Positions 10,695 through 39,701 of a stretch of DNA of 63,565 nucleotides are shown here, in pieces. A program made the position numbers and the translations under genes. Under the pieces are notes generated by a model. The model was not told the origin of the DNA, did no database searches, and saw only the letters and a list, made by a program, of their open reading frames with translations. Where the stretch lies: positions 1 to 63,565 of the forward strand of contig JAPSLD010000001.1 of assembly GCA_031181105.1 (NCBI GenBank). The letters run 5' to 3'. Within the stretch, counting starts at the first letter, position 1, and the number at the start of each line of letters is the position of its first letter. Source of the stretch: Isoptericola sp. (GTDB taxonomy: Bacteria > Actinomycetota > Actinomycetes > Actinomycetales > Cellulomonadaceae).

Positions 10695-11183
10695 ATGGCC
10701 AAGGGCGCCAAGAAGCAGGCGGACCCGCGCACGATCGTGGCGAACAACAAGAAGGCCCGCCACGACTACGTGATCGAGGACGTCTTCGAGGCCGGGCTCG
10801 TCCTGTCGGGCACGGAGGTCAAGGCGCTGCGCATGGGCCGGGCCTCGCTGATCGACGGCTACGCGACCATCGACCGCGGTGAGGCGTGGCTCGAGAACGT
10901 GCACATCCCCGAGTACTTCCAGGGCACGTGGAACAACCACGCCCCGCGGCGCCGGCGCAAGCTGCTGCTGCACCGCGAGGAGATCCTGCGGCTCGACTCC
11001 AAGGTCAAGGAGAAGGGTCACACGCTGGTGCCCCTGAGCCTGTACTTCCTCGACGGCCGCGCCAAGGTCGAGATCGCGCTCGCGCGCGGCAAGAAGGAGT
11101 ACGACAAGCGGCAGACGCTGCGCGAGAAGCAGGACATGCGCGAGGCGCAGCGCGCCATGCGCCAGCGCGAGCTGCTCAGCTGA
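10695..11183 (+). CDS. smpB: SsrA-binding protein
   Basis: [34 protein letters not shown]. Confidence 0.97.
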
Positions 11184-11589
11184 GCGACGCGACGCGTCGC
11201 ACCCGGGTGCCGGTGCGCACCGCGCGGGGAATCTCCGCGACCCGCTCGACCTCGTCGAGCACGCGGGCGACGTCGTCGGGCGAGGCGGGGGAGTCCACCT
11301 CGACGGCGTACTCGATGCCGGTCGAGGACCACGTGCCGGTGTCGTAGCCCCCGCGGGCGTGGACCCGCGCCCCGTCGACGACCACCCCGAGCGCCTCGGC
11401 CTCCCGGTAGACGTCGTTGAGCACGCACCCCGCGACCGCGAGATGCAGCAGGTGGGCACCCGTGAACGCGGCCTCCACGGTCACGCCCGCGCGCGTCCAG
11501 CGGTGGGGCAGCGTCGGCACGCTCGGCGACGGGGACCGCAGCGTCCCCGCACCTACCGTGACCTCGAAGCCCTCGGCCACGTCGCTCAC
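11176..11589 (-). CDS. OsmC-like protein
   Basis: [16 protein letters not shown] resembles the OsmC/Ohr Cys helix; typical size. Confidence 0.6.
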
Positions 11590-11684: not shown

Positions 11685-12053
11685 GGGGCTGATCGGTTTC
11701 GACGGTGGTCGTGCTTCCAGGGGAAGCGGGCCGAGGATGCAGGCTCATCTCGTTAACGCATTGCCTGCAAACCTATAGGTGCCGATAACAAGCGCACCGA
11801 CTTCGCCCTCGCCGCCTGAGCGAGCTGCGTAGTCCGTCGGCCCGGGGATGCTCTCGCCTCGGTTAGCCGGCGTCAACTAGAGAGCCACTGCTCGTAGTCC
11901 TCGTCATCGGGGCTACGGGGACACCTAGATGACTGGGCCCGTCCGCACCTTGTCTGCGTGAGTGCGGGGGCCGAGAAAATCACAGCAGACTGCGCCCGGA
12001 GAAGCCCTGGAAAAGCGCCACCGGACCCGGGTTCGATTCCCGGCAGCTCCACC
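11685..12053 (+). ncRNA. ssrA: tmRNA; tag peptide ADNKRTDFALAA* at 11781-11819
   Basis: 5' GGGGCTGATCGGTTTCGAC; 3' T-arm CCGGGTTCGATTCCCGGCAGCTCCACC; canonical ALAA tag; next to smpB. Confidence 0.97.
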
Positions 12054-12056
12054 GAC
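12051..12056 (+). repeat. Left copy of direct repeat ACCGAC (putative target-site duplication)
   Basis: Identical ACCGAC at 41286-41291; both copies abut the inverted repeats. Confidence 0.75.
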
Positions 12057-12215
12057 GGCCTCCTCACGAAATACCTGGTCGCGAGGTTACGAAACCCCGT
12101 GACCAGGGGGTTGAGGTGGTCAACGACCGTGCGAGGTCGTCGAGATCGGTGTCGGACACTCTCAGTTGGGGGTTTCGACACCGATCAGGCGCTTCTCGTC
12201 CCCTGTGTAGACACG

Positions 12216-12260
12216 ACGGCCACCCCTTCACCAGCACGGTGAGGGGGTGGCCGTTTGTGT
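12216..12260 (+). terminator. Intrinsic terminator inside element left end (may serve both ssrA and the convergent transposase)
   Basis: ACGGCCACCCCTTCACC-agcac-GGTGAGGGGGTGGCCGT followed by TTGTGT. Confidence 0.7.
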
Positions 12261-12279: not shown

Positions 12280-14086
12280 CTACGCGGCGCGTTTGTCGGG
12301 CGGGTGCTCTGTGGGCACGGCCTCGACGATGATGGGCAGGAAGTTGTGGAGGTTCTCAGCGGCGAGCGGCCGGCGTCGGCCCTTGGTTCTGCTCGTGGGT
12401 GAGGCCTGACGGATGGCCCAGGCGACCAGTTTGCGCAGGTTTGCTGAGAAGACCATCAGGGCGACGATGAGGGCCTGGCGCGCGTAGCCGCGTACCCGGC
12501 GCCGGTCCGGGTCTTCGAGGGCTTCCTTGTTGCCGTTCTTGATGAAGTCGTTGTAGCTCTCGATGACGGCGCGGGCGTGCCCGTAGTGCCGATACCACTT
12601 CTCGGACCTGAACGGGTACTTCTGGATGTACTTGGCGACCTTGGCCGTCCCCCTCGGCATGGTCACGCTTGCCTGCGTGCAGATGGTGTCGGGCTGCGAC
12701 ACGGGTAGTCCGTCGCGGTCCAGCGGTCCGTTGACGGGGAAGAGCGGAAGCTGGCGACGGCCGTCGTTTTTCGGCAGCGGGCACAGGTCGCATGCCAAGG
12801 TGGGCTTGCGTCCACGTGCCGGGCAGGAGTACCGGTCCATGCCGTCGCTCCTGCCGACCTCCTTGGGGATGAGCCGGAACCTCTCGCGAAGGCCGAGCGC
12901 CTTCTGGTAAGTGGTCTCCGCCTCAGTTTTCGCGGCTTCCTTGGCTGCGCCCCGTTTCATGTTGCTGGCCTTGTCCATGGCCTTGCGGTGAGTTATGGAC
13001 GCGTTTCGAAGGTGGAGCGGCATCGATGCTGAGTACCACGTGCCGTCGACGAGGATTGCCCCGTTCAGTTCGGCCTGGAGCCCCATCTGGTTGACCTTCA
13101 AGTCGGAGCAGAACTCCCAACCGAGGGCGAGTGCGGGTCTCTGGAGGACGTCTTCGTCGCTACTGGGTAGGTAGGCGCGGTCTCCGACGAGGATGCCGGT
13201 GGGGAACCCGCGCTCTGCGAGTGACCGTAGGCAGGTGATGGCGTTGGTGCCGGGTGCGCCGGGCTTGTCGAGCGCGTAGGCCGTGACGAGGTAGGGGAAG
13301 TCGTCGTCCTGCTCCCGGCGGGTACCGTCGCCCGTCATGACCACGAGGTGGGCCTCGTAGCCCCACGTCTGGCCGTCCCGGTAGAGGCCTGCCATCGCCT
13401 CGGGGCTTGTTCTTGCCTCGGGGTCGTCGGGGAAGATGGCGCGCTGGTCTGTGTGCTGGCCTCGGACGGGCATCATCGTCGCGTCGATGCAGACGTGGCC
13501 CTTGTATGCCTTCTTCGCCGAGGCGGGCATCAGGTCGTAGGACGCCTGGAGAATCTTGCCGATGAAGGTGTTCAGGCGCTTCATGCGTGCGGCGATGAAG
13601 TCGTCGCTGAGCTTGGCGAGAGCCTCGTCTACCTCTCTGCGGGTGCTCGTCGTGGCACCGGAGATTGTCGGGTAGGGATTGAGCGGTGCCGCGAGTCGAG
13701 CGCCGGCGCGTGCGGCCCGATGGAACCAGATGTCCTTGTCGGCGTCGTCGTCGGGGATGCCGAGCAGGTCCTTGCTGGCGACGTCGAGCGCCGCGAAACG
13801 CCTCCGCGACGTTGACCAAGGCGGGGCTTTGCTCGGTCATGATGAGGCAGGCCTGGACGACCAGGAACGCGGCATCGCTGATGAGGGCGGGGCGCCCGGC
13901 GGGTTCCTTGTCCTGTGCACGGTAGTTGGCTAGGTCTTGGAAGATGCCGGTCTGCTCGAAGGCGCGGTAGACGGACCAGACGAGGGAGTGCTTGAGGCTG
14001 CTCTTGTTGGTGGTGACCTTGCCGTTCTCCAGGCCCAGGAGGCTGGACAGGATGTAGCTGAGTTCCTCTTCAGGCGTTGCGGTCAT
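12280..14086 (-). pseudogene. Large IS4/IS1182-like DDE transposase (~600 aa), single frameshift near 13790
   Basis: MTATPEEE...AEAFRG joins LDVASKDLLGI...MKRLNTF after a frame change (span 1807 = 3n+1); CIDAT, GDRAY, R-x3-E-x6-K (RAVIESYNDFIK); Cys-rich insertion. Confidence 0.75.
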
Positions 14087-15012
14087 CGCAGGACGCCGTT
14101 CGTGCGCAGGTCGTTGCGAGCGTCGTCGAGGTTGGTGACGCCGGGGACGAAGGGTAGGAACCGGAAGAGGGCCTTCATGTCCTGGACGCCAGCGATGCGT
14201 ACGAGCTCGTCGATGGGTGTCCGGGCGGAGAGATGGGTCACCAGCCAGGTGGCCCGCATGCGCCGCAGTGTCGGACGGACCTTGGTCGCGGTTCGCTCGA
14301 CGAACAGGTCGATGAGGTTCTTGTTGTCGCGTGCTTGCCCGCCCGGGCGAAACGCGTACTCGTGCGCCTCGTGCTTGCGCACGAGCATCTCCAGCGGTTG
14401 CGTCCACTCGGGAAGAACAGAGACAAGGCGAGGACACTCACCCGCGGTGATGCGGAGCACGCTGCTGTGGTTCGGCTCGACGAGGACGTCGCCGACCGTG
14501 AGCCAGGCGAGCTCGACGTTCTTCACCCCGGCGCCGAGTCCTGCCGAGAGTAGGACGGAAGCGTTGTGCCGTCGGTACGAACTGTCCTGGTTTGCGGCCC
14601 AGTTGACGAGTGTGGTCACTTCGCGACCCGTGTAGGGCCGGGACGGGTTCGACCGGGGCCATGAGGCCAGGCCGCCCTCTGGGACGTAGACGTCGTGTCT
14701 GCGGGCCAACTCGACCAGCGTCGTTCGATAGGTGCCCCTCGTGGCCGGCGCGACATCGTTGAGTTCCGTCTGAACGAAGAGGTTGATGAGCCGGTAGTCG
14801 AAGAGCTTGTGGACGTCCATCGGTAGTTGCGCGTCGTTGACTGCCCAGTCGACGAACCGACTAGTGATGTGCATGTACCGCAGGGTCGTTCGGGGCGTCG
14901 CGAGCGGTGCGGCCTCGCGCACGACGTCGGCGACGAACTCCCGCACCGACTCCCAGCGGTCGGCTGGAAGGCGTGCGGGGTGGAACGTGTCGGTCACGTC
15001 GCTGGCAGGCAT
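14083..15012 (-). CDS. Tyrosine-recombinase-fold protein lacking catalytic residues
   Basis: Box I GLGAGVKNVELAWLTVGDV (R to K), box II RRMRATWL (no His), C-terminal AGVQDMKALFRF (Tyr to Phe); ATGA overlap with transposase. Confidence 0.7.
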   Translation of the reverse strand: MPASDVTDTFHPARLPADRWESVREFVADVVREAAPLATPRTTLRYMHITSRFVDWAVNDAQLPMDVHKLFDYRLINLFVQTELNDVAPATRGTYRTTLVELARRHDVYVPEGGLASWPRSNPSRPYTGREVTTLVNWAANQDSSYRRHNASVLLSAGLGAGVKNVELAWLTVGDVLVEPNHSSVLRITAGECPRLVSVLPEWTQPLEMLVRKHEAHEYAFRPGGQARDNKNLIDLFVERTATKVRPTLRRMRATWLVTHLSARTPIDELVRIAGVQDMKALFRFLPFVPGVTNLDDARNDLRTNGVLR

Positions 15013-15084: not shown

Positions 15085-15393
15085 GTGCCCAGACCGAGGC
15101 GCGAGCCGCCCCGAGCGTTCGCCGAGAACTGGCCCGAGCAGCCCGTCGGGGACTCGACTGCCGAGGCTGCTCGGCTCGTTGCCATGCGGCTGCGCCAGGC
15201 CATCGCAGGCCGGCCGTTGCGTCAGGTCGAGGCCATCACCGGGGTACATAACACGACCATTGGCGTCGTTCTGCGCGGTGATGCTTGGCCCGACATCTTC
15301 ACGCTGGCAAAGCTCGAACTTGGCCTCGGCGTCGACCTGTGGCCTGTCCGGTCGGGGGTCGTCGTGAGACGACGCTCCGACGGCGGCGACTGA
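15085..15393 (+). CDS. XRE-like HTH regulator, divergent from the mobility operon
   Basis: LRQVEAITGVHNTTIGVVLRGDAWPDIFTLAKLE; TACTGT -10 before GTG. Confidence 0.7.
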   Translation: MPRPRREPPRAFAENWPEQPVGDSTAEAARLVAMRLRQAIAGRPLRQVEAITGVHNTTIGVVLRGDAWPDIFTLAKLELGLGVDLWPVRSGVVVRRRSDGGD

Positions 15394-15573: not shown

Positions 15574-15930
15574 ATGGCGCAACGCTGGGAGCCCAGTTTC
15601 GTCCCGCGCCTGTTGGCGGACGACCCGCCGCAATTTGGGTGGGATCGCGCGCTCAACTTCGGGTCAGGACCGAGGCGGCCAAGAGGCGCTGACGATAGAC
15701 GCGCCGAGCACCAACGAGCGGCTGCGAAGTTCCAGCACGAGTTCGTAATCGAGGCACGCAGTCAGCTGCGGCGGCTCCACAAGAGCCGGACCTGGCTCGC
15801 AGATCAAACAGGTCTGGACTACACGCGTATCGGCCGCATCTTCTCCGGGCAGGTGCCGATGCGCCTCACTGACCTGGCGCCGATCGCCGCAGCACTCAGC
15901 CTGACCTCCGAGTGGGCACGCGAACGATGA
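15574..15930 (+). CDS. XRE-like HTH protein
   Basis: SRTWLADQTGLDYTRIGRIFSGQVPMRLTDL. Confidence 0.65.
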   Translation: MAQRWEPSFVPRLLADDPPQFGWDRALNFGSGPRRPRGADDRRAEHQRAAAKFQHEFVIEARSQLRRLHKSRTWLADQTGLDYTRIGRIFSGQVPMRLTDLAPIAAALSLTSEWARER

Positions 15931-16002
15931 TCGCCAAAACTGCTGGCGGCGTCCGCGTGCAGCTGGCTGTACAGCGGGCGGATTCCGGGGTTCGATACGG
16001 CG

Positions 16003-16188
16003 GTGAAGAGGACCGTGACGAAGACCTACAGCGACATTTCCGGAGAGGCCGACGCTGCGACAGTGCGCTTCTCCTTCGAGAAGGCGCAGTACGAGATCGA
16101 CCTGACTCGGGCGGACCGTGAGGAGTTCGTGCGGGCTATCGCTGGCTACACCGCGAAGGGCCGCAAGGTTCGCCGACGCGGGGACTGA
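16003..16188 (+). CDS. Lsr2 N-terminal oligomerisation domain only (61 aa)
   Basis: SDISGE...TVRFSFEKAQYEIDLT aligns with SDLSGE...TVIFGVNGTQYELELT of the Lsr2 at 25199; no RGR domain. Confidence 0.7.
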   Translation: MKRTVTKTYSDISGEADAATVRFSFEKAQYEIDLTRADREEFVRAIAGYTAKGRKVRRRGD

Positions 16189-19432: not shown

Positions 19433-20281
19433 GTGCCGCAGACCGACGCCGCGAACTTCGCCCTAACCCTGGGTGACATCCTCAAGGCGGCCGGCGTCGA
19501 GGATCTGCGGTCGGTGCTGGTCATCAGGCACACGTACAACGCTGAGGGCCTGAGCGGGCCGAGCGACCTGACCCCGCAGCGGGTGCTCGAATACACGCGT
19601 GTCCAGTCGGTAAGGGGCAAGTTCCCGGCGGTTCCGCCACCGCTGTGGCTGTTGTTCGTGGCCGACGGCGGGCGAAGCTCACGCTTCCTGTGGGCGTACG
19701 AGAACCATGGCGAGCTGGAAGCCCACCGCGAGGGCGACTGGAGAACGTTCGACCTGCGTCCGTCCGGCTTCATGGACAGCCTGCGGGACCGACTCGTCGT
19801 CGAGTGGTCGAGAGACACCGTCAACTGGGCCAAGTCGGCGGCCACCGCCGCAGCGTTTCCGGTCATGGAGATTGCCGACCCGGCCGTCGTCCCGTTCCCC
19901 GGGTATGACAGGCTCTTCATCGACTACGGCGAGCTGCAGAAGGTCGTCGAGGACCGGCGCTACCGGGACTGGCGGACCGCGCTCGGTGCTGTTCAGGGCA
20001 TCTACCTGATCGCCGACGAGAAGACCGGGAAGCTGTACGTGGGCAAAGCCGACGGCGCCGAGCGAATCCTCGGCAGGTGGACCGCGTACGCCCGCAGCGG
20101 CCACGGAGGCAACGTTGCGCTCCGAGCGGCGGTCGGACTGGACGCCGACCACCCACAGCACTTCAAGTTCAGCATCCTGCGCGTGTTCGGCCCAAACGCG
20201 ACGACCGCCGAGGTTGACCAGGCGGAAGCCCATTACAAGCGCGCACTGCTGTCACGCACTCACGGCTACAACCGCAACTGA
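19433..20281 (+). CDS. GIY-YIG nuclease family protein
   Basis: GIYLIADEKTGKLYVGKADG, RWTAY, EAHYK, GYNRN. Confidence 0.85.
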   Translation: MPQTDAANFALTLGDILKAAGVEDLRSVLVIRHTYNAEGLSGPSDLTPQRVLEYTRVQSVRGKFPAVPPPLWLLFVADGGRSSRFLWAYENHGELEAHREGDWRTFDLRPSGFMDSLRDRLVVEWSRDTVNWAKSAATAAAFPVMEIADPAVVPFPGYDRLFIDYGELQKVVEDRRYRDWRTALGAVQGIYLIADEKTGKLYVGKADGAERILGRWTAYARSGHGGNVALRAAVGLDADHPQHFKFSILRVFGPNATTAEVDQAEAHYKRALLSRTHGYNRN

Positions 20282-27884: not shown

Positions 27885-29174
27885 CTACTCCATGCCGCCA
27901 GCGGGCAGGACCTTGCGGATTGCCTCCAGCAGCAGCTCGCCGCGTTCGGCCTCTCCCGTTCCGGACCGGTAGCCGTACATGTCCAGGCCGACAGCGACCA
28001 CCGCCTTGGGCCGGTCCGCGAACCCGGTCGCGTCCCAGCGCACCGGGGGCAGGGCGTCGGGGTAGACGAGCACGGACAGGTCGGCGCCCACGGCTGCCGC
28101 GGTAGAGACGGCTTGGAAGAAGTGGCTTCTCGTGCGCTCCGGCGTCGGCACGGAGTATTTGGCTTCGAACGCGACGACGATCCGCCCGTCCTTGGACAGC
28201 GTTGCGTCGGGGTCAACCTGACGGTCCGTGTGGATGCCGGCCCAGACGCCTGGTTCTGTATCGACGGCACCGAGGAAGTCGTGCAGCGAGTGCTCTCCGG
28301 CCACCAGGGGCACGCCTTCCCGCTGTGCCTGGCGAGCTGCTGCCCGTACCGAACGGTGCAGGAGTGTTTCCAGGAGCGGCCAGGGCTCGACAGCCAGACC
28401 AAGCCCTTCCTGGACGCCCGATCTGCGCAGTGGTGAGACGCGTCGAATCACCGCGCACGCTGTCACCCAAGCGTCCGCGTACTCCCGCCACTGGGGAGGA
28501 AGCGGGCGCGCGGCCACGCCCGGGTCCAGGGTCGCATGCAGTGCCAGGCCGGGCCGTAGATCGCCGCGAAGAGCACGCAGTCGCTGCGCGATCGACGGGT
28601 CGGAACTTCGAGAGGCCAAGGTCTCGGCAACCCATGCCATCGCGGAGGTGAACGCGTTGTCCGTCGTGAGCGAGGTGCGCTGCTGCGGGAAGATGTGCGG
28701 TCGCAGGATTCGGCTCGTGGTCCAGCGGGTGACGTCGAGACGACCGCGAAGACGCGACTCGGTCGTCCTGGCTGGAACGATCACGGACAGTGGGCCGGCA
28801 CGCCTGATGGCGTCGCCGAGCTGCTGGGCGTACAGGTGGGCCAGAGCGTCCGGAAGGTAGAGGCGCGGCGAGACCTCAGCTTCCCTGACCTGTCCTTCGT
28901 AACTGACCCGCTCAGCGCGAATCAGGTCGTAGACCGCCGCCGTCCAGTTCTCGCCAGGCATGGTCTTGGGTGCGATGTCGACCAAGACGTCCTGAGTGAC
29001 CTGCACGGTCCCCACCAGGTTCTGGACCGTGGGTGCCGCCGAGTCACCACCGAGAAAGCGCATCCGAGGCTTGAGCTCTTCCCGTAACGAGACCAGGCGC
29101 TCACGAATGGCTTGCGCCGTCGTCAGGTCGACGCCCGTGATTGGCTGGCCCTCGGTGACCTCGATGCGCTGCAT
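27885..29174 (-). CDS. McrC-like PD-(D/E)xK nuclease subunit
   Basis: NLVGTV, RLRGRLDV, TTDNAF, DPDA...FEAKY; coupled to McrB-like gene. Confidence 0.8.
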   Translation of the reverse strand: MQRIEVTEGQPITGVDLTTAQAIRERLVSLREELKPRMRFLGGDSAAPTVQNLVGTVQVTQDVLVDIAPKTMPGENWTAAVYDLIRAERVSYEGQVREAEVSPRLYLPDALAHLYAQQLGDAIRRAGPLSVIVPARTTESRLRGRLDVTRWTTSRILRPHIFPQQRTSLTTDNAFTSAMAWVAETLASRSSDPSIAQRLRALRGDLRPGLALHATLDPGVAARPLPPQWREYADAWVTACAVIRRVSPLRRSGVQEGLGLAVEPWPLLETLLHRSVRAAARQAQREGVPLVAGEHSLHDFLGAVDTEPGVWAGIHTDRQVDPDATLSKDGRIVVAFEAKYSVPTPERTRSHFFQAVSTAAAVGADLSVLVYPDALPPVRWDATGFADRPKAVVAVGLDMYGYRSGTGEAERGELLLEAIRKVLPAGGME

Positions 29175-30913
29175 CAGAGCAGCGAGGCAAGGGCTGCCAC
29201 GAGGTCGTCACGCTCCAGGTCCTGGAAGCGTGTGAGCCTGAGACGGCTGGTTGCCACCTGTCCGACGAGACCTCGCGGGCGATGCCATGCAGCAGCCGCG
29301 ACTCCACCGGACTCGTCGTCCTTGTCAGCGACGTTGAGCACCGCGGCCAACGCGGCGTCGTTGTCGGTGAACGACAGGCCGAGGGTGCCCATGACCTGGT
29401 TGTCCATCGCTGCGGCGAGCGCACGGAGTGCCTCGTCGCCGGTGTCACCATCGACGTGCCAGAACACGCTTTGGCCGAGCAGGAAGTCGCGCCCGAGCAC
29501 CACTTCGATGCGGTCGTTGAGACGCGAGAGGATCTCGACGGCGAGAGCCTTGATGTGCTCAGGAGTCGTCCAGCTGTCCGATTCGGCGAGCGTGAAGTCC
29601 TCGGGGACACCGAGGTTCTCCCGCAGCGCGTCGAGGTCGGGTTCGACGAAGATGATCGAGAACCTGCGGCGCAGGGCGGCGTCCAGCGGGGCGACCGACC
29701 GGTCGGCGCTGTTCATCGCCGCGAGGATGTAGAGCGTTTTGGGCAACGAGATGGTGTCGTCGAGTGCGGCACCATCTATCTCGGGACCCAGGTGCCGGTA
29801 GGGCGTGGCAATCTGTGCACCGGAGCCGGGCTTGCCTGGCTCTGAGCGCTTGTCACGGTCGAGGAGTGCCAGCGTGTCACCGAAGATGGCCGCTGCGGAG
29901 CCTCGGTTGAACTCGTCGCACTCCAGCAGGGCGATGTTGCCCTCGGTGGACGCGTGCTGGGCGAGCTCGAGAAGTGGTCCGACATGCGGCTTGACGATGA
30001 CGGACTTGGAGCCGGCGTCGACGTCGGGCAGGAGCCCGATGACGAAGTCCTCGTAGGTGTAAGACGGGTGGAACACCAGGGACCGCACACGCGCGTTGCC
30101 CTCGGGCGCAATGCGCTTCTCCTGGAACGCTCCGTGCAGCATCTCGTCATCGAAGAGCACCTCGGGCTGACCTGCCTGGAACAGTTCGCGGTAGTCCTCC
30201 ATGGCGACCGTCTTGCCGGTGCCTGGAGGTCCGACGAGCAAGACGTTCGGGTTCTCTTCGAGCGCCTCCGCGATCTGCTTGACGAGCTTCTCTGCACGCA
30301 TCGGTACGCCCTTTCTGAAGTCCACGAACCCGCCCGGATCCCGCGTAGACAACGCACGCATCTTCGCGCGAACGACGTCGGGCAGCGTGTCCCAGGAAGC
30401 AAACTCTCGGCCAGGCGCAGGATTCTGCAGCACGACTCGCGCGTGCAGAATCGGCCCTTCGCCGTGGCGGTGGACGGCCACCAGCCACGGATGCTCCCCG
30501 GACTGCTGGAGCGTGTCCAACTGCTGGTCGGCAGCGGCATCGTTCTTGATGCCCGGAGTGCCGGCCAAGGTGGAAAGTGACGTGTCCGTAGGGCTGGGCG
30601 TGAGCTTCCACGGCGGGGGTGCGTTGTCCGTCTCCCAGCGCAGGTTCATGCGCCCGCCTTGATCAGCGAAGTCCGCGGCAGGCTTGATGAGACCGTCCGT
30701 GTACTCACCGCCTGGCCAACGCCAGGTCACGCGCGTCTGCCCGCCTGGTGCGATTCCCAGCGCGCGTTCCAGGGCCCGGGCAAGGTCGCGGCGCGGCTGC
30801 AGGAAGTCCTTGGTGTAGGTGGTGCTCTCCGGGATGCGCCCGTAGGTCGCCTTGAAGGTCGCCTTCGTGTCGGCCTTCCAGAAAAAGACCGCCTGGACGG
30901 GGAGCGCTGTCAC
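29174..30913 (-). CDS. McrB-like AAA+ GTPase with unrecognised N-terminal domain
   Basis: GPPGTGKT, FHPSYTYEDF, DEFNRG, MNSADRS, LRRRF. Confidence 0.88.
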   Translation of the reverse strand: MTALPVQAVFFWKADTKATFKATYGRIPESTTYTKDFLQPRRDLARALERALGIAPGGQTRVTWRWPGGEYTDGLIKPAADFADQGGRMNLRWETDNAPPPWKLTPSPTDTSLSTLAGTPGIKNDAAADQQLDTLQQSGEHPWLVAVHRHGEGPILHARVVLQNPAPGREFASWDTLPDVVRAKMRALSTRDPGGFVDFRKGVPMRAEKLVKQIAEALEENPNVLLVGPPGTGKTVAMEDYRELFQAGQPEVLFDDEMLHGAFQEKRIAPEGNARVRSLVFHPSYTYEDFVIGLLPDVDAGSKSVIVKPHVGPLLELAQHASTEGNIALLECDEFNRGSAAAIFGDTLALLDRDKRSEPGKPGSGAQIATPYRHLGPEIDGAALDDTISLPKTLYILAAMNSADRSVAPLDAALRRRFSIIFVEPDLDALRENLGVPEDFTLAESDSWTTPEHIKALAVEILSRLNDRIEVVLGRDFLLGQSVFWHVDGDTGDEALRALAAAMDNQVMGTLGLSFTDNDAALAAVLNVADKDDESGGVAAAAWHRPRGLVGQVATSRLRLTRFQDLERDDLVAALASLL

Positions 30914-31764
30914 GGGCGCGGACCGCCGAGGATGATCGCCTCGGGGGAGTCAGCCTGCTCGACGTCGCGGCGGTTCTGGGCCGCGACGGAACGTCGTGTA
31001 GTGAAGCGCACGATCTCATTGTCGGGGAACAGGTCTCGGACCTGCTCGGTGTCCCGGTTCGACATCACCCAGCGCACCCCTCGCTCCGTCAGCTGGTGGC
31101 ACAGAGCGGCGAGCTCGGCGAGGTCTGGCGCGCGGAACCGCTTCTCCGTGTACAGGTAAAACTTCGACGTGTCACTGATCGGCAGGTAGGGCGGGTCCAG
31201 GTAGACAAAATCCCCAGCCTTCGGCTTCTCCAGCGTGACGCGGAAGTCGTCGTTGGTGATCGTGGCGCCGATGAGAGCGTCGCTGAGCCGGTGGAGGGTG
31301 TCCTCGTCGAAGCCTCGGAACGGGCGGTCTCCCCACGGCACGTTGAACTGGCCCCACTTGTTGACGCGCCACAGTCCGTTCCAGGCTGTCTGGTTGACGT
31401 AGAGGAACCAGGCCGCCTGGCCGACAAGACTCTCAGGGACTGCCTGCCGCTGGGAGTAGTAGAAGTCCTTGGAGTCGTTGCTCTTGTAGTAGTCGAGCGC
31501 GGCCAGGAGTCCGGCGGGATCCTGCTGGACCGTCCGCCAGACCGTGATGAGGATCTCGTTCAGGTCGTGCAAGTGGGGAGCTCCGGCGATGCGGTCGCGG
31601 ATCGCCCAGAACATGGCGCCGCCACCCAGGAACGGCTCGTGGTAGTCGTCGAACTCCGCCGGTACGTGGGGCAGGATCTTCCCCAGCAACCGCGTCTTTC
31701 CGCCCGCCCACTTGAGGAACGGGCGCAGCGGCGGGGCGGAGACGTCGGTGGGGGCGGCGGTCAT
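30910..31764 (-). CDS. Dam-like (alpha class) DNA adenine methyltransferase
   Basis: FLKWAGGK, EPFLGGGA, YLDPPY, VMSN. Confidence 0.9.
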   Translation of the reverse strand: MTAAPTDVSAPPLRPFLKWAGGKTRLLGKILPHVPAEFDDYHEPFLGGGAMFWAIRDRIAGAPHLHDLNEILITVWRTVQQDPAGLLAALDYYKSNDSKDFYYSQRQAVPESLVGQAAWFLYVNQTAWNGLWRVNKWGQFNVPWGDRPFRGFDEDTLHRLSDALIGATITNDDFRVTLEKPKAGDFVYLDPPYLPISDTSKFYLYTEKRFRAPDLAELAALCHQLTERGVRWVMSNRDTEQVRDLFPDNEIVRFTTRRSVAAQNRRDVEQADSPEAIILGGPRP

Positions 31765-31864
31765 GGGTCGAAGCCTAGAGTGAGGGACCCACGCAGCCGT
31801 GGAGGTGCCCGCCGTGCCGCCGGCGGTGGATCCAGATGTCTGATGCTCCTGCTGTACTTGAGCC

Positions 31865-33142
31865 GTGACAGACGCCCTGACCCTCACGTGGCCCAACCAC
31901 GACCGCCTGCTCATCGCGAGCAACGAGACGGACTATGAGTGGATCGCGGGCGACGCCGAGCCGGTCAAGGCCAAGGACCGTGGTCGCATCGGCGAAGGCG
32001 AGGCAACCGGGGTCGTCGCGTGCGGTGACGGACTCGACGCCCTCGACGCGCTTGCGATCGACGGCAAGCTCATGGACCAGAAGATCCGGCTCGTCTACGT
32101 CGACCCGCCGTTCGGCGCCCAGAAGCGGTTCGGGCATTACCGAGACACACTGTCCACGGCAGCCTGGCTGTCGATGCTCCGCGACCGTCTCGCGGCGCTC
32201 AAGCCGCTGCTGAGCCCTGACGCTTCAGTCTGGTTGCACCTGGACGAGACGATGAGCCACCGCGCACGCCTGGTGCTCGACGAGGTCTTCGGCGAGAGCG
32301 CCTACGTGGCGACCATCGTCTGGCAGAAGCGGCTGACGGTGGAGTCACGCACCGCCGTCTCCGTCTCCCACGACCCGATCCTGGTTTACGCGCCCGCCGG
32401 TCGGAAGCACTGGAAGACCGTGCGCAACCGCATCGCGAGCACCGTGGCTGGAAGCAACCGTGACGGTGACCCGCGCGGCCCCTGGCGTGATGCTCCCTTC
32501 ACCGCACCGGGCTACCGGGCGGGTCAGCAGTACACGATCATCAACCCCGCTGGTATTGAGCTGACCCCACCGCGCGGGCGCTCGTGGTTCGCGACCCGGC
32601 CGGTATTCGAGCGCCTCGTCGCCGAGGACCGCATCTGGTGGACCAAGCGCGGCGCCGGCCAGCCGCGCATCAAGAACTTTGAGATCGACGGCACGCAGGT
32701 GCCCGGCACGATCTGGTCCGGCGAGGAGGTCGGTACCAACGACGATGCCAAGCGTCACCTTGCCGGTCTCTTCGCCGAAGCCGAATCGGTCTTCGATACC
32801 CCTAAGCCCGAGGCGCTCCTGGAGCGCATCATCCACATCGGGTCCAACCCGGGCGAACTCGTCGTGGACCTATTCGGCGGATCGGGCACCACGGCGGCCG
32901 TCGCCCACAAGATGGGCCGCCGCTGGTTCACCAGCGAACGCCTCGTCGATACGGTCAGCAACGTCCTGGTGCCCAGGCTCGCAACTGTGGTCGGCGGCAC
33001 CGACTTCGGCGGCGTGACCACCAAACACGGCTGGGCTGGCGGCGGAGCCTTCGAAGTCGTGCAGGTGCGCCCGCGCCTCGGCCGCGTCCGCGAGTTGCCC
33101 TACGTCGTCGACAGCGCAGCATCAGCGTCACGGAACCGCTGA
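31865..33142 (+). CDS. Beta-class N6/N4 DNA methyltransferase (Mod-like)
   Basis: YVDPPF, FDTPKPEALLERII, DLFGGSGTT. Confidence 0.88.
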   Translation: MTDALTLTWPNHDRLLIASNETDYEWIAGDAEPVKAKDRGRIGEGEATGVVACGDGLDALDALAIDGKLMDQKIRLVYVDPPFGAQKRFGHYRDTLSTAAWLSMLRDRLAALKPLLSPDASVWLHLDETMSHRARLVLDEVFGESAYVATIVWQKRLTVESRTAVSVSHDPILVYAPAGRKHWKTVRNRIASTVAGSNRDGDPRGPWRDAPFTAPGYRAGQQYTIINPAGIELTPPRGRSWFATRPVFERLVAEDRIWWTKRGAGQPRIKNFEIDGTQVPGTIWSGEEVGTNDDAKRHLAGLFAEAESVFDTPKPEALLERIIHIGSNPGELVVDLFGGSGTTAAVAHKMGRRWFTSERLVDTVSNVLVPRLATVVGGTDFGGVTTKHGWAGGGAFEVVQVRPRLGRVRELPYVVDSAASASRNR

Positions 33143-33207
33143 TGTTGCGCGCCGATGGCGCTCGTCGTGGCGGTCGACGCAAGCGTGTAGGACTCGGGTT
33201 GCCGCCG

Positions 33208-34137
33208 CTACGCACCCGAACTGGTTTGCCGCTTTGATCCGGCGGCGAACTGCTCACTGGAGAAGTCGCCGGTAAAGAGATCCTCGTTGAGCAAGCGAAG
33301 CAGCGTCTTGATGTTCTGCTTTGAGAAGTCAAGCTCGCCGCGCTTGATGAACTTGTCCGGTTCCAAGCCCCGCTTCCTCATGGCGGCGCGAAGCTCGCGG
33401 GTTGTCAGAGTCTTGATGTGCGGTCTTCGCAGGATGGCGTGGAACTTGGAGCGGTAGTGCGAGTTCCGCCGCAAGGCGTCGACGAGAGATTCTTTGGTTT
33501 CCTGAGTGATGGGAATGCCAGCCGCGAGTTCATCAACCCAGGTCGAGGTCTTCGACAGGACGGCCTCGGAATCCCTGAACATCAACTCGAACTGCCGCTT
33601 GTCCAAGACGTATGCCCACTCTGGCGTCAAGACCATGTCGTATCGGCTGTCGAACGCGAGGAGCGGGTACTCGACGTGGTCCAGCGTTCCGTCCAGAAGC
33701 CTTGCGACGATGCTCTTCGTGGCGAGCTGGACGGGGTTCCGCTTGCGGATAAACACTGTACGCGAGTCGCCCGATCCGATCACGGCGGCGTAGCAAACGA
33801 GGGGCCTGGTGCGGACTTCGTCATCCGTGGCGAGCGGGAGGGAGCTGCCCATTTCGAGTTGGTCAACGAGTTCAGTGTCGAGGAGTTCGTCTCGTGCTGC
33901 GACGAGATGCGTGTTGTCTTCGATATCGACGTCAGGGCTGTATGGATGTCCGTCGGTCATCGCCGCAGTGGTGTCAGCGGCGGCCTGGCGAAGTGCATCT
34001 TCTACGGCTCCACGGGTCTTGACGAGGCGAGTCACAACTCTGGCTCCAGTGCGCCACGCTACGACCAGTGCCAGTGGACCGCCTGTGTCGATCTGCGGCG
34101 TCCCCAATTGAAGTCCTTTCGGTTGCTTGACCATCAC
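33208..34137 (-). CDS. kwaB: KwaB-like (DUF4868) Kiwa defence protein
   Basis: LAFDSRYDM, FELMFR, LLRLLNEDLFT C-terminus; coupled to a KwaA-like gene. Confidence 0.7.
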   Translation of the reverse strand: MMVKQPKGLQLGTPQIDTGGPLALVVAWRTGARVVTRLVKTRGAVEDALRQAAADTTAAMTDGHPYSPDVDIEDNTHLVAARDELLDTELVDQLEMGSSLPLATDDEVRTRPLVCYAAVIGSGDSRTVFIRKRNPVQLATKSIVARLLDGTLDHVEYPLLAFDSRYDMVLTPEWAYVLDKRQFELMFRDSEAVLSKTSTWVDELAAGIPITQETKESLVDALRRNSHYRSKFHAILRRPHIKTLTTRELRAAMRKRGLEPDKFIKRGELDFSKQNIKTLLRLLNEDLFTGDFSSEQFAAGSKRQTSSGA

Positions 34138-34658
34138 GGCTCCAATGCCGCGTGGTCGACAATCACGTCGTCCGAGATGCGGGATGCTCGCACAGTGTCT
34201 CCCCGTAGAACGCGCTTCTTGGTAATCAGATAGCCGCTATATCCGTTCTCATCCTCGACTGCCAGGACCTTCCATCCCAGGACGAACAGCACCGGGTTGA
34301 CCTGGATGATGCCCGTGCGAACGTGTACTACGCCAGCGACGAGGAAAAACACGCCGTAAGCAAGCAGGTCCCTGCTGCTGGGCTCCGACACGGTGAGAAA
34401 GGGAAGTAGATATCCGGCAAGGTAGGCGGAAGCCTCGCCGCCCGCCGATCTGGCCGTCACGATCACGTAGTCCCCGGCGCTAACGCCTGCTTGCCGTCGC
34501 ACGAGCAGTACGACGGCTGTGACTCCGATGACCGCCGCCGCGAAGCATGCGACCCGCAAGTTTCGCCCATCGAACCGGATCGTGAGCATCACGAACAGCG
34601 GGGCGTACGACGACAGGAACATCACCGGTTTGGTGAGCAGTCCCTCGCCAGCAGCCAT
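34134..34658 (-). CDS. kwaA: KwaA-like multi-TM Kiwa protein
   Basis: FLSSYAPLF, YLAGYLLPF, VNPVLFVLGWKV; about four TM segments. Confidence 0.7.
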   Translation of the reverse strand: MAAGEGLLTKPVMFLSSYAPLFVMLTIRFDGRNLRVACFAAAVIGVTAVVLLVRRQAGVSAGDYVIVTARSAGGEASAYLAGYLLPFLTVSEPSSRDLLAYGVFFLVAGVVHVRTGIIQVNPVLFVLGWKVLAVEDENGYSGYLITKKRVLRGDTVRASRISDDVIVDHAALEP

Positions 34659-34764
34659 GCGCTCACAGTACGAGTTCGGTCCGACAAAGGTCCTCAACTT
34701 GATCGGGTGAGGTGGCCGCCGTCGGGCTACCGAGCGCCGTCGTCACGTCCTTCCATGAAGGCGC

Positions 34765-35712
34765 TCAGAACTTGCCCTTGTCCTCCGGGTGCTTTGCTTC
34801 ATAGTCGCCGCGGAGCTCGTGGATGGACTTCCAGCCGCCGTCACGCGAGGCGTGCCACCAGCGCCATGCGTTCTGCGTCTTGCCAGGAAGCGGGTTGGTG
34901 GCGACCTCCCAGGCGCGATTCGGGCTGATGCAGACCTGCCCGTTGACGATGAGATTGCCGTTGGCGAGCACCTTCGCCTGCACACCTGAGGAACCTCGCA
35001 GTGTCTCGCCATCGCTGAGGTAGCCACGCGCGACCATCCCGGCGATCTTCCCCCAATGTGACTGCCGCCCGCGGCGCTGCTCGAACGGGGGAGCAGAGAC
35101 CGCCGGTGGTGCAGGACGAGCCGCCTCCTCCTGGGCCAGAGAGGGCGGGCGGGCGGCCTCCGCGATCATGTCCACCGCAACCGTCTCAGGGATGTCGGCC
35201 CGAATCTGCACGCGCCCCTTGGTGACGTCGTAGCCGAGCAATCTCAGGACCACCGTCACGTTCGGCAGGACGCCCCGACGCAGACGCGACTTCTCCCGCT
35301 CGGTCGGCGTGTCGTCCGCCGGGGTGTTGTTGTTCTGCGTGACAGCGAACCGGAAACCCGAAAGATGCTGGTAAAGCGCGCCCTCTAGGTAGCCAGCCGA
35401 GGCAGACGTGAACGCGTCGTTCCAGCCCGGAAGGATGACCAGCACCCGGTTCCACCACGACTTGTCCTTCAGGTGGCTAGCGATTCGCTGGGCGACGGTG
35501 CCCGTACCCACCTTGCCGACGTAGAACGTCCACGCCCCGTTCTCTCCCGGCGCAGGCCCGAGCAAGATGTAGGTGTCGAGGGCACCCTCGGCGCTCGCCG
35601 CAAAGGCCCGCTCCAGAAGGACGAACCGGTAGGCCGAGTCTGGTACTCGGAACTCGATGGCCTTCCGCGTGTCGTCGGGGACGATCACCTGAACGTCGAC
35701 GTCTTCACTCAA
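34765..35712 (-). CDS. GIY-YIG-like nuclease with C-terminal RAMA/DUF4357-like domain
   Basis: TYILLG...FYVGK, RIASHLKDKSWW, YLE; C-terminal NGNLIVNG...SPNRA...NAWRWW. Confidence 0.65.
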   Translation of the reverse strand: MSEDVDVQVIVPDDTRKAIEFRVPDSAYRFVLLERAFAASAEGALDTYILLGPAPGENGAWTFYVGKVGTGTVAQRIASHLKDKSWWNRVLVILPGWNDAFTSASAGYLEGALYQHLSGFRFAVTQNNNTPADDTPTEREKSRLRRGVLPNVTVVLRLLGYDVTKGRVQIRADIPETVAVDMIAEAARPPSLAQEEAARPAPPAVSAPPFEQRRGRQSHWGKIAGMVARGYLSDGETLRGSSGVQAKVLANGNLIVNGQVCISPNRAWEVATNPLPGKTQNAWRWWHASRDGGWKSIHELRGDYEAKHPEDKGKF

Positions 35713-35842
35713 TTGTGCCTCCAGCGCACCTGTGGGCTGCGGCTACGAGGGCCGGCTGCTTGCCCAGGTTAACCGCCGGTGATTGGGGGCACTGGCAGCA
35801 GCACGTGGCGGTGCCGTCAGTGGCGGGTGGAATCCTCTGCTC

Positions 35843-36853
35843 ATGCGCTCCGTTGCCGCGTGGCTGAAGCACTGGTGGATCGCCGTAGCGGCGGGTGCGC
35901 TCGGCATCGCAGTTCTCGCTGCTTCGTGGGTCGTTCCCGACCGGCTGAACGGCGACGCTGGCACGTGGTGGGAAGCGGTACTGACGAACGTCGGCGCAGC
36001 CATCCTGCTCATTGCCCCCATTGCCTGGGCCTCGGAGCGACTGACGCGGCAGGTCGAGATCGTCCGCGAGGACGTCGAGGCGAGTCGTGTCGCGACGGAC
36101 GCTGTCCGTGAGGATGTCCGCCGCGTCCGAGAAGAGACCACTCAAGAGGTGGAGGGACTGCGCCAGGAGGTTGCTTCGCTGCGCGACCTCAGTGACAGCC
36201 TTCGTGCGCGTCGTGACGCCGAGATGCAGCGAGAGACCGGGGCGTACCGTCGGCTCGGTCTCGATGGAACCGTGCCAGCGCGCGAGGATGTGATCGAAGC
36301 CTTACGCCTCGCCATCGAGAACGGCGTCGTCGAGCAGCGTTACGGACCTCGGGCAGCGCTGGGACCCGGGCGGAGTGACTACCTCAGGCTTCGATACGAG
36401 CCGAACGACTTCGGCGAGAGCGATCTGTTCTTCGAGGTCATGTCCGTGGAAGGCTGGGTCAAGCGCTTCGTCGCATGGGATGAGGGCGGGTTGATCCAAG
36501 ACGTTCTCTTCGGGGTAACGAAGGCGCTGCGCCAAGAGGGGTTGGAGTCCAGTTTGGATGCTAGTGACTGGTTTCGACGCCTTTCGCAGACCCTGGTCAT
36601 CGGTGCCTCGCACTCGTCGCTACACAAGATCGTCGAACTCCACGAACCCCAGTGGGCGGTCACCCGTGACGGCGTCACTGCGTACGAGGGCGAACGCTGG
36701 TCCCTTGGTCCGGATCAGTTCGACTATCACGAAGTGATGGAGTCTGTGATGAAGGAAGCGTGGGTGGATCCTCGCGCACTCGGCGACGCCATAGCGACGT
36801 GGAAGGCACTCTTCGCCAAGCCGAGCTTGTGGGGCACAGAACCGCCGTTCTAG
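35843..36853 (+). CDS. Hypothetical membrane protein (2 TM, coiled coil, globular domain)
   Basis: Two hydrophobic N-terminal segments followed by an E/R-rich helix. Confidence 0.6.
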   Translation: MRSVAAWLKHWWIAVAAGALGIAVLAASWVVPDRLNGDAGTWWEAVLTNVGAAILLIAPIAWASERLTRQVEIVREDVEASRVATDAVREDVRRVREETTQEVEGLRQEVASLRDLSDSLRARRDAEMQRETGAYRRLGLDGTVPAREDVIEALRLAIENGVVEQRYGPRAALGPGRSDYLRLRYEPNDFGESDLFFEVMSVEGWVKRFVAWDEGGLIQDVLFGVTKALRQEGLESSLDASDWFRRLSQTLVIGASHSSLHKIVELHEPQWAVTRDGVTAYEGERWSLGPDQFDYHEVMESVMKEAWVDPRALGDAIATWKALFAKPSLWGTEPPF

Positions 36854-36919
36854 CGAGTGCCGTTCGCGTCGCAGAGCAGTTCGACTGCCTTGTCAGAGGC
36901 GGCTGGGATTCTCCGAGCC

Positions 36920-37420
36920 ATGGATGAACCAAAGTGCTACCAGCAGGCCGCCGATCGGATTATGGCCGCGATCTACTCCGAAGTGCACTGGCAGGAAGCC
37001 ATCGAGTACGGGCGAGCACGATCGATCCGGCACTTCATCACGTCGGTCGTCCTTGCGGTTGGCGATAGGCCACTCGACCTCGTGGCACTCGACGGCGCGG
37101 AGCACGAGAACGAGCGCTTCGAGCTGAGCGCTGTGATCGTTGCCGGCGATCTGTTGGTCGAGGCCAGCGTCTCTGGAGAGCGTCACGACGACGAGGCCGA
37201 CCTCGCGGTCGAGGCGCGCTCTTTGTGGGAGGTCGAGAAGGTCGGCGTCCTGGCGCGACGCGGCCCCTGGCCTTCGCAGCCGTTGGTCACCCTGCGCTTC
37301 CGTTCTGGCGAGACAATCGTGGTTCCGGATGGTTGTGGATACAGCGCGGCCGAGACTGATGCTCGCGCTGACTTCGCCGTCCGAGTGCACCACCACCTCG
37401 GCAGTTCGGTCACCGACTGA
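36920..37420 (+). CDS. Hypothetical protein
   Basis: Non-repetitive ORF filling the gap between neighbours. Confidence 0.5.
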   Translation: MDEPKCYQQAADRIMAAIYSEVHWQEAIEYGRARSIRHFITSVVLAVGDRPLDLVALDGAEHENERFELSAVIVAGDLLVEASVSGERHDDEADLAVEARSLWEVEKVGVLARRGPWPSQPLVTLRFRSGETIVVPDGCGYSAAETDARADFAVRVHHHLGSSVTD

Positions 37421-37529
37421 TCAATCACTCGTCGTCCGTGCCCGCGCCGTCGAGATGACCGTCTTGGACGCGCCGTCCGGTTGCCTCGTACTGACGCTCG
37501 ACGTACGCCGTAACGCTACGGTCTGCATT

Positions 37530-37823
37530 GTGGCGACGCGGCACGAGTGCCCCCAGTGTGGGCGCAAGACCCAGGTGGGTCCCAATGGCAACTGGTACAG
37601 CCACATGCGGCACGATGACCCGTCCGTCTTGTGCCCGCTGTCCGCTCAGCCTGCATATGGGTACGAGCCGAACCCGGCGAGCCGCTCGATTCGCGCCGAC
37701 GACGTGATCCAAGAGATCGAGATTCCTCCCAAGAAGCCGCTCCGCCCTGTTGTGAAGGGAGCCGAGGAGGGCACCTCCATCCGAACAATCTCTGGCGGGC
37801 TGCCTGGATCCAGGCGCCGGTAG
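37530..37823 (+). CDS. Small zinc-finger-like protein
   Basis: CPQC...H...CPLS; TACGGT -10 before GTG; C-terminal SIRTISGGLPG. Confidence 0.5.
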   Translation: MATRHECPQCGRKTQVGPNGNWYSHMRHDDPSVLCPLSAQPAYGYEPNPASRSIRADDVIQEIEIPPKKPLRPVVKGAEEGTSIRTISGGLPGSRRR

Positions 37824-37860
37824 TCCACTCGCGCTTACGCCAGAAGTGGCGCTGTATCGC

Positions 37861-38571
37861 TCAGTCGATGGGTCGAACGAGGTCAGGACTGTCGTTCTGG
37901 ACATTGCCGACGGCGACACCGACCTTGATGGGTGTCAGGTGTGGCTCTGGCACCTTGGCGAGTAGGGCGTCGACCTCTTCGGTGTCGGTGAGCTCGGGGT
38001 CAAGCCAGGCGTCCCAGAAGTCCGCGGGCAGCAGCAGCGGCGAGCGGTCGTGGATGTGCCCGAGCGTGTCCGTGGCGTTCGTTGTGATGACCGTTAGCGA
38101 CCACAGCCACCTGTCTGCGTCTTCGTCGCCCTTGCTCGGGTCGCGCCACAGTTCGTACAGGCCCGCAGCGGCGAGCGGGGCACCGTCGGGGTCGGTGAGG
38201 TAGTAAGGCTGCTTGCGACCCTCGCCGGACTCGGGTGCCTGCCACTCGTAGTAGCCGTCCATCGGCACGATGAGACGCCGTCGGGACGCCGCGCGTCGGA
38301 AGGAAGGCTTGTCGGTGATGGTCTCGAAGCGGGCGTTGATCATGCGGGCGCCGGTCTTGATGTCCTTGGCCCAGGAGGGCACCAGGCCCCAGTTGAGCGT
38401 TCGCAGCTGGCGGGCCACGTGCCCGGACTGCTCCCGTTCGAGGACCGCGCGGACATCCTGAGTGGGCGCGATGTTCCGAGAGGGTCCGAGTTCCTCGCCG
38501 ACGAGTTCGGCGACATGGAACCGATCTGCGATCTCCTGATCGCGGCGCGCGTTCGCATACCTGCCACACAT
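37861..38571 (-). CDS. SOS response-associated peptidase (SRAP/YedK/HMCES)
   Basis: MCGRY, WGLVPSW, INARFET, GYYEW, IHDRSP. Confidence 0.92.
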   Translation of the reverse strand: MCGRYANARRDQEIADRFHVAELVGEELGPSRNIAPTQDVRAVLEREQSGHVARQLRTLNWGLVPSWAKDIKTGARMINARFETITDKPSFRRAASRRRLIVPMDGYYEWQAPESGEGRKQPYYLTDPDGAPLAAAGLYELWRDPSKGDEDADRWLWSLTVITTNATDTLGHIHDRSPLLLPADFWDAWLDPELTDTEEVDALLAKVPEPHLTPIKVGVAVGNVQNDSPDLVRPID

Positions 38572-38714
38572 GGCGGTCAGTCTCGCTTCGAACGCGACGA
38601 CTGGCTATCAGAAGAGCGCAGCGCAGCGCCGCCGCGATTTGACACGTTTCCGCAGCTCGAGTCAGGATCGCGTCTCCGACTGCGTATAGAAATACGCACA
38701 ACGAAGGAGGACGG

Positions 38715-39281: not shown

Positions 39282-39331
39282 GTTCGAGTGCCGGGACCAG
39301 CCGGGTGCCTACATAGCGTGACGCGTGCCAC

Positions 39332-39365
39332 GGGGCCGTCAGGGAGATTTCTTCCTGACGGCCCC
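39332..39365 (+). terminator. Terminator hairpin
   Basis: GGGGCCGTCAGG...CCTGACGGCCCC. Confidence 0.7.
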
Positions 39366-39627: not shown

Positions 39628-39648
39628 AAGCCGTTGGGTTTCGAGCGC

Positions 39649-39684: not shown

Positions 39685-39701
39685 AGTCATAACAGAATCA
39701 A

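Follow-up and report, generated by a model that had tools for sequence, protein, structure and literature searches.

In this study, we analysed a 63,565-nt stretch of an Isoptericola sp. genome (contig JAPSLD010000001.1, here called the window) and found that two of its genes, one for a tyrosine-recombinase-fold protein predicted to be catalytically dead and one for a transposase of the DDE (Asp-Asp-Glu) type, are the mobility module of a 29.2-kb transposon situated directly behind ssrA, the gene of the transfer-messenger RNA (tmRNA). Based on the comparisons below, we consider it likely that this DDE transposon carries cargo and targets specific sites behind tRNA and tmRNA genes, its probable target selector being the dead recombinase. 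A bolder proposal, to which we give slightly better than even chances, is that of a two-protein, ATP-independent site-specific transposon, retargeted among at least 16 RNA genes by changes in the core-binding domain of the recombinase alone and usable as a modular insertion tool for 5-37 kb of DNA. The family is real, widespread in actinobacteria and apparently unpublished; a full-text search, with most subscription papers and the supplements outside its coverage, found no description of it.

The element behind ssrA

The element spans positions 12056 to 41285 of the window, of which the initial annotation (12280..15012) had covered the module only. The module lies at the left end, at the border of a low-GC stretch (GC content 0.658 in the cargo region vs 0.729 and 0.76 in the flanks) and 227 bp from ssrA, which is the sole tmRNA gene of the assembly. 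The features that concern mobility are as follows.

11685-12053, + strand: tmRNA gene ssrA, the target (ARAGORN); discriminator base at 12051 by the family position rule; the insertion leaves the gene intact
12051-12055, + strand: left copy of the target duplication, ACCGA, beginning at the discriminator base; single copy in the empty allele
12056-12094, + strand: left end, with the terminal box at 12056-12071 and a second ACGAAA box at 12089-12094, 23 bp inward
12215-12255, + strand: terminator-like hairpin of 18 pairs between the tmRNA gene and the transposase stop codon (consensus match only)
12280-13800, - strand: 3' part of the transposase, Tn5/IS4-clan-like, with DDE triad codons near 13484, 13181 and 12560 and a Cys-rich insertion
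13796-14086, - strand: 5' part of the transposase, ~95 codons, cut off from the rest by a frameshift at ~13795-13815
14083-15012, - strand: predicted catalytically dead tyrosine-recombinase-fold protein, likely target selector; core-binding domain ~1-110, catalytic-type domain ~120-305
15094-15393, + strand: small divergent helix-turn-helix (HTH) gene, possible regulator; start uncertain
41259-41285, - strand: right end, with the palindrome CTGNNCAG at positions 20-27 from the end; GAAA box eroded
41286-41294, + strand: right target pentamer plus four further bases, which form an overlapping second copy; one copy in the empty allele
41295-41890, strand unstated: older islet of ~600 bp that occupies this site but is not part of the element; the empty allele has it, other strains of the same runs do not

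The element bears the signatures of a DDE transposon, namely inverted ends, a 5-bp target duplication and an empty allele. The right end (41278-41285) matches the left end in inverted orientation over 8 bp, and the 13 bases of the right junction have a chance expectation of 0.002 in 51 kb. The empty allele came from public sequencing runs: on the left side, contigs that diverge from the window at 12055 run into the right flank (runs X3 and X4), and on the right side, in contigs that begin at 41290, the tmRNA end comes before this point (runs X3 and X5). By comparison with this allele, only the pentamer is duplicated at the window element. An empty site was searched in 32 genomes of the genus and not found there.

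Other delimitations of the element were rejected. A 6-bp duplication with a perfect 8-bp inverted end is compatible with the window copy taken alone, owing to its doubled pentamer, but several relatives have unlike sixth bases in their two copies, and an insertion into a CRISPR spacer, described below, fixes five. The empty allele, read in the simplest way, agrees with a right end at 41289, but the palindrome would then be four bases off the family register; we placed the right end at 41285 because of this register. The islet beyond it contains a short open reading frame (ORF) and begins much like the first bases behind the tmRNA gene in G905, and it may be a remnant of another member.

Across the family, the duplication was defined as the five bases from the discriminator, and a right end was accepted at an inverted-end score >=10. 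On these terms right ends were found in 13 of 29 other elements, and four more were placed by the end motif or by a directly following left end; for the remaining 12, one of them with a rejected score-10 match, none was found in the 10-60 kb read. An additional set gave right ends in 5 of 13 elements (20 kb read). Element lengths range from 4.65 to 37 kb, and the rule that the duplication starts at the discriminator is valid for A, G and T discriminators. The left ends carry a 15-bp box ending in GAAA, which is repeated 22-23 bp inward in 65 of 74. Confined to the right end is a palindrome, CTGNNC(A/T)G, which fills positions 20-27 (41259-41266 in the window); of 16 other right ends, 9 have it in this register. 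A pattern search with the end motif in five genomes was too unspecific to use. Doubled target pentamers occur at the right junctions of G156, G527 and the window element, and are possibly footprints of earlier excisions. At ~7.4-8.2 kb in the G051 region (L055), a tandem stack includes a mini-element of 762 bp that comprises both ends as well as the duplication and is a possible non-autonomous derivative.

A recombinase fold with a lost active site

The recombinase ORF runs from 15012 to 14083 on the minus strand and encodes 309 amino acids. Searched alone, this protein has no Pfam or NCBIfam match; a profile built from 26 relatives matches XerA (E=3e-11), XerD, the integrase of Tn1549, Cre and IntI4, and PF00589 is found in 8 of the 26 members. 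Its AlphaFold model (pLDDT, the predicted local distance difference test score, 92.6) consists of one helical core-binding domain and a complete catalytic-type domain that together align with XerH and Cre over ~300 columns; the top Foldseek matches of the model are XerA, XerH and Cre, with probability 1.00 and both domains covered. The tyrosine-recombinase layout that the initial annotation had read from the sequence was thus borne out by profile search, model and structural search alike.

The same holds for the substitutions it had pointed out, i.e., Lys for the box-I Arg, Arg for the His of HxxR and no Tyr in the C-terminal region. When aligned with XerA, the box-I Arg corresponds to K164, the HxxR His to R250, the His/Trp position to V276 and the nucleophile to F285, and the last Tyr of the protein is residue 219. 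The second Arg (R253) is the sole catalytic position retained, and the loop of the catalytic Lys is shortened. The conservation of these losses across homologues had been put forward as a check: none of 40 recombinases retains R-H-R-Y and 29 of the 40 keep just one of the five scored residues, so that this is not local decay. G160, R195, R253, W256 and G275 are invariant among the 40, and the median ratio of nonsynonymous to synonymous substitution rates (dN/dS) is 0.22 over 77 Streptomyces pairs, which are not independent of one another. These sequence comparisons indicate that the recombinase family is catalytically dead yet maintained by purifying selection.

Some relatives depart from this architecture. 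G327, G355, G402 and G541 (L136, L140, L135 and L150) and G905, G945, G919 and G997 (L238-L245) have variants with extra N-terminal core-binding domains, or with a further upstream gene that adds one or two dead-recombinase domains. No fused or much longer form was seen among 7,995 candidates of 722-2,060 amino acids, which is weak evidence.

A Tn5-like transposase, frameshifted in the window copy

The downstream frame contains the DDE triad in the form of IDAT, GDRAY and RxxIE, the last inside a Y-x3-R-x3-E-x6-K motif; triad and YREK-type motif are conserved in the family, on an RNase H-like core with an insertion domain. The fold was taken from an intact homologue (L015, from the 4.65-kb element of G156; model pLDDT 83.1). 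In structural alignment this model is closest to Tn5 transposase (Z 14.6, root-mean-square deviation 8.7, 303 residues aligned), the next match having a Z of 9.7, and TnsB gives a Z of 9.0 over 152 core residues. Sequence profiles stay below their cut-offs (DDE_Tnp_1 with 18.8 bits vs 23, IS1182 with 16.7 vs 270): no cut-off of a named insertion sequence (IS) family was reached, and three intact homologues had no NCBIfam match. Judging from the modelled Tn5-like fold and the YREK motif, the enzyme would use hairpin cut-and-paste chemistry.

The translational coupling proposed by the initial annotation needs to be qualified. The TGA of the recombinase (14085-14083) and the ATG at 14086 do overlap as ATGA, but this ATG and the DDE ORF, which ends at 12280, are in different frames owing to a frameshift that had been missed. 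The homologous reading changes frame about 95 codons in, at ~13795-13815, the match to profile positions 15-99 lying in a different frame from that to positions 100-603. Contigs from two studies, one of which may be the source sample, show 0 differences and 0 gaps across the spot; an assembly error was ruled out by the identical contig of the second study. A programmed frameshift is not supported either, as most relatives have a single open frame and the broken ones break elsewhere. The window transposase is split by a real lesion, and because of this frameshift and the eroded box of its right end, the window copy is probably immobile by itself.

Spread, linkage and target sites of the family

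Among close genomes, 11 of 151 contain a relative of the transposase; samples of 401 genomes each gave 22 at the level of the class, 21 at that of the order and 13 at that of the phylum. These counts overlap and include the genome of the window, and they put the family in about 3-7% of sampled genomes. The 34 named loci with relatives are mostly from Streptomyces, plus Nocardia, Microbacterium and metagenome-assembled genomes, and wherever annotation was seen the members were annotated merely as hypothetical proteins. The unpublished genomes G194 and G201 count in the recombinase-gene tally only, and G873, G994 and G1066 in the phylum tally only. Phage genomes and a metagenome contig scan gave no match, and viral contigs a single weak one of 23 residues.

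Linkage of the two genes, another check suggested at the outset, was found to be tight. Of 55 copies whose sequence includes the N-terminus and DNA upstream of it, 54 possess a recombinase-like gene. In the other direction, a search of 401 genomes gave 14 recombinase genes with E<1e-30, each of them adjoining a transposase (9 of the 14 were in the query alignment), and several weaker matches were recombinase pairs whose HxxR/GH/Y motifs are intact and which have no transposase. Among 31 distinct loci, 24 have stop and start codons that overlap or lie <=8 nt apart; frames are broken in the remaining seven.

The searches of close genomes, class, order and named loci gave 86 distinct copies, 81 of them readable, i.e., with the C-terminus and >=600 bp downstream. 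A convergent tRNA or tmRNA 3' end precedes the insertion in 74 of these 81, with 16 target types, so that the family uses many tRNA genes in addition to the ssrA that the initial annotation had considered. Among the remaining seven, two stand in tandem behind the end of another element and three lie ~4 kb behind a tRNA or another copy. In G945, a second clade sits at the tmRNA gene with the same geometry, inverted ends and duplication. The recombinase and transposase trees (the latter a quick version) largely agree, and sister elements can differ in target, for instance L191 (Pro) and L192 (Ser), or L195 (Lys) and L198 (Val); this agreement shows co-inheritance only, since kin share target labels. 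Tandem stacks were seen in G051, G057, G048, G542, G375, G341, G541 and G905, as is to be expected if the recognised sequence is inside the RNA gene and outlasts the insertion. Members with no convergent tRNA beside the transposase are L044, L002, G919, G997, G1129 and G1081, of which G997 and G1129 have a tRNA-Gly on the recombinase side, 5-14 kb off. An Rfam scan of nine tRNA-less loci gave no match.

The pair is also what the elements have in common. In a BLAST gene census of 17 delimited elements, the transposase was present in all 17, the recombinase in 14 and any other gene in at most seven. There is no AAA+ ATPase common to the 17, and the GxxGxGK[ST] (Walker A) motif is absent from 10 of them, among others from 4.7-kb elements that have both ends; the single match in the window is the McrB of the cargo. 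Because no ATPase is shared and 10 of 17 elements have no Walker A motif, the family seems not to carry a TnsC-like adaptor, and the minimal system of dead recombinase and DDE enzyme that had been proposed from the sequence is supported in this respect. Nor is a third gene common to most of the 17 elements, in a census that included no TniQ-profile search. The divergent HTH gene has relatives in 7 of the 17 and is annotated in all five plasmid copies opened.

What the dead recombinase may read

The initial annotation had left open whether the recombinase recognises the target or the element ends. We compared 40 pairs, thinned at <70% identity to 26, taking the 16 bases before the duplication as the target. 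Given the transposase, target distance correlates with distance of the whole recombinase (r=0.24, p=0.005) and more so with that of the core-binding domain (r=0.37, p=0.0003; catalytic-type domain 0.06); given the recombinase, it does not follow the transposase (r=-0.05). Conversely, left-end distance correlates with the transposase (r=0.27, p=0.003) and not with the recombinase (-0.02). The core-binding signal has a jackknife range of 0.31-0.42, and none of 1000 random column sets reaches it. This co-variation among sequences favours the recombinase as reader of the target rather than of the ends.

Copies on plasmids offer a second view of recognition. Six were found in Streptomyces; five were opened, three have a readable left end and none of these three lies at a tRNA gene. 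The closest relatives of these copies insert at tRNA-Ala genes. Each of the three readable sites shows GAATCC at 15-16 nt ahead of the left end, which is the place of the T-loop motif in the tRNA-Ala targets (background 3.5e-4 per site, for a motif chosen after the sites were seen). In NZ_CP108257.1 (L205, ~34480-39970) a 5,487-bp member lies within a spacer of a type I-E CRISPR array beside an intact cas operon; removal of the element and one pentamer restores a 32-nt spacer in an array with a 61-bp period, and this spacer resembles a tRNA-Ala 3' end, which it matches without a shift at the T-loop and over the final four bases. The T-loop-like plasmid sites away from tRNA genes point to the DNA sequence being read, rather than RNA or transcription.

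Discussion

Based on our results, we propose the following sequence of events. The dead recombinase would clamp the DNA of the T-loop and 3' acceptor stem (approximately tRNA positions 57-72) by means of its core-binding domain and recruit the Tn5-like transposase directly. The transposase, bound to the terminal boxes, would excise the element by cut-and-paste, and strand transfer with a 5-bp stagger from the discriminator base would insert it at a fixed distance with its left end facing the RNA gene. The recognised sequence would be left intact, and later copies could stack in tandem. In this proposal we infer that the two proteins touch each other directly and that no host adaptor is needed.

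A number of observations weigh against this explanation or parts of it. On the side of target choice, Leu-CAG is the target of 40 of the 74 tRNA-adjacent copies, mostly in related Streptomyces elements, L002 and L044 have no tRNA adjacent, and four of seven genomes checked in other classes have no convergent tRNA beside the transposase (two of these four bear extra dead-recombinase domains). The plasmid copies, being off tRNA genes, speak against a universal tRNA rule; the tRNA register is missed by one base at two of the three pseudo-sites, for which no right end could be located. As to co-variation, Mantel-type tests on related sequences overstate significance, and dropping the 10 Leu-CAG elements lowers the core-binding correlation to r=0.19 (p=0.056, n=16). 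Furthermore, an N-terminal window of the transposase also co-varies with the target (r=0.25), and the signal between ends and transposase is not localised in sliding windows. As to the proteins, L112 has no recombinase in the DNA read, Foldseek with the transposase model of L015 returned weak matches to DDE enzymes and none with E<=0.001, and the motif census is blind to degenerate Walker A motifs and to host factors.

We also weighed other explanations. One possibility is that the dead recombinase acts at the transposon ends, which it would bind or bridge for synapsis, orientation or the holding of a long cargo, and that the transposase reads the tRNA DNA. The ends are indeed asymmetric, the extra left box and the right-end palindrome could serve a second protein, and the co-variation of the N-terminal transposase window is what such a division of labour would give. 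However, the left-end sequence does not follow the recombinase and the target tracks its core-binding domain, and the second left box repeats the terminal one, so that one protein could serve both; we regard this explanation as unlikely. We would rate lower still the case of a recombinase that selects the target and needs a third factor as adaptor, which might be the divergent HTH protein, a host ATPase or a nucleoid protein. Its attraction lies in the recurrence of the HTH gene and in the precedent of Tn6022, which requires TniQ and TnsC between TnsF and the transposase in the published passages covered here (PMC10293859). Nevertheless, most elements share no third gene, and the 4.7-kb elements have both ends without a Walker A motif.

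Very little probability goes to a recombinase that is merely a regulator or inhibitor, the preference for tRNA being due to the transposase itself or to transcription or structure at the ends of tRNA genes in the host. A regulator could equally well be translationally coupled and have DNA-binding residues, but the co-variation between core-binding domain and target would be left unexplained, as would T-loop-like DNA at plasmid sites without a transcribed tRNA. Finally, the window taken alone, with its low-GC defence island at ssrA and its frameshifted transposase, has the classic look of an ordinary integrase island with a locally decayed integrase and an unrelated IS alongside. This we consider practically negligible and already refuted by the empty allele, the family census and the catalytic-residue count: no duplicated tmRNA 3' fragment stands at the far end, where inverted ends and a 5-bp duplication are found instead (an att-type direct repeat of the tmRNA 3' end of >10 nt was absent elsewhere in the window, beyond chance 10-mers), and the catalytic residues are lost family-wide under purifying selection in a protein linked to the transposase in 54 of 55 copies.

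Target selection by the dead recombinase can be placed beside several known systems. The transposase resembles Tn5/IS50 and the IS4 clan in its best structural match, its YREK motif, the short inverted ends and the weak, sub-cut-off DDE_Tnp_1 and IS1182 matches. Unlike these, the family here has an obligate second gene, a strict choice of site and 4.7-37 kb of cargo between single ends, and its target duplication is 5 bp, that of Tn5 being 9 bp. Tn7-like elements with TnsD/TniQ home to tRNA or ssrA ends, and Tn7 makes a 5-bp duplication. With these (their mechanism as generally known) the family shares insertion downstream of an essential RNA gene that is left intact, fixed orientation, tandem stacking and defence cargo, but the proteins are unrelated, there is no AAA+ adaptor and the insertion point is directly at the gene end.

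The closest precedent for the recombinase is TnsF of the Tn6022-type Tn7-like transposons, an inactive tyrosine-recombinase derivative that serves as target selector (Faure et al., 2023, PMC10293859; this and the following points as given in the passages covered). TnsF has 498 amino acids, with N-terminal zinc fingers, two core-binding domains (CB1 and CB2) and a partial catalytic domain, targets comM and acts through TniQ with TnsA, TnsB and TnsC (PMC10293859). Both systems have an inactivated recombinase serving a DDE transposon, a fixed site and a target duplication, and some relatives here have tandem core-binding domains that recall TnsF. The protein here is different in having ~310 amino acids, one core-binding domain and a full-length catalytic-type domain, with one Cys in the window protein; furthermore, its transposase is Tn5-like and not TnsB-like, no TnsA or TnsC is among the shared genes, nor apparently TniQ, and the targets are tRNA and tmRNA genes. 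Tsy, from the same source, likewise has a tyrosine-recombinase-based target selector and a small HTH gene, but two active recombinases, no inverted ends and no DDE enzyme (PMC10293859). Tyrosine integrases dominate tRNA sites (PMC10484663, in the passages covered), and their islands have the same tRNA/tmRNA sites and the same protein fold (PMC10484663, PMC8138268), whereas here the recombinase is dead and the junctions are of transposon type, not att-site repeats. The covered passages of PMC8138268 and PMC10484663 contain no mention of such a pair. As the element did not pass the tests for Tn7, integrase islands and named IS families, the family combines Tn7-like homing with membership in none of these.

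These comparisons bear on what site-specific transposition requires. Tn7-like, protein-guided, site-specific DDE transposition needs three to five proteins including an AAA+ adaptor, whereas here two genes appear sufficient, with a transposase of a class normally regarded as near-random in its choice of site. The dead tyrosine recombinase as a targeting module would be an independent recruitment. In addition, the family accounts for a class of actinobacterial tRNA/tmRNA defence islands that resemble integrase islands without being such, and its many natural target switches represent a direct route to testing the reprogramming of a DNA-binding module.

Cargo and neighbouring genes

Behind the mobility module, the element carries mostly defence genes.

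15574-16188, + strand: second HTH gene and Lsr2 dimerisation-domain gene, cargo
16204-41139, strand unstated: cargo, mostly defence genes, including
19433-20281: UzuA
27885-30913: McrC/McrB
30910-33142: two DNA methyltransferases
33208-34697: KwaB/KwaA
34765-35712: PDC-S14
37861-38571: SRAP
39799-41139: EcsC

Within this cargo, McrBC adjoins the two DNA methyltransferases and the Kiwa pair (27885-34697), and no Pfam match was obtained for the long N-terminal domain of McrB. Outside the element, between smpB and ssrA, a small ORF on the minus strand (11176-11589) encodes what we take, by eye, to be an OsmC-type protein.

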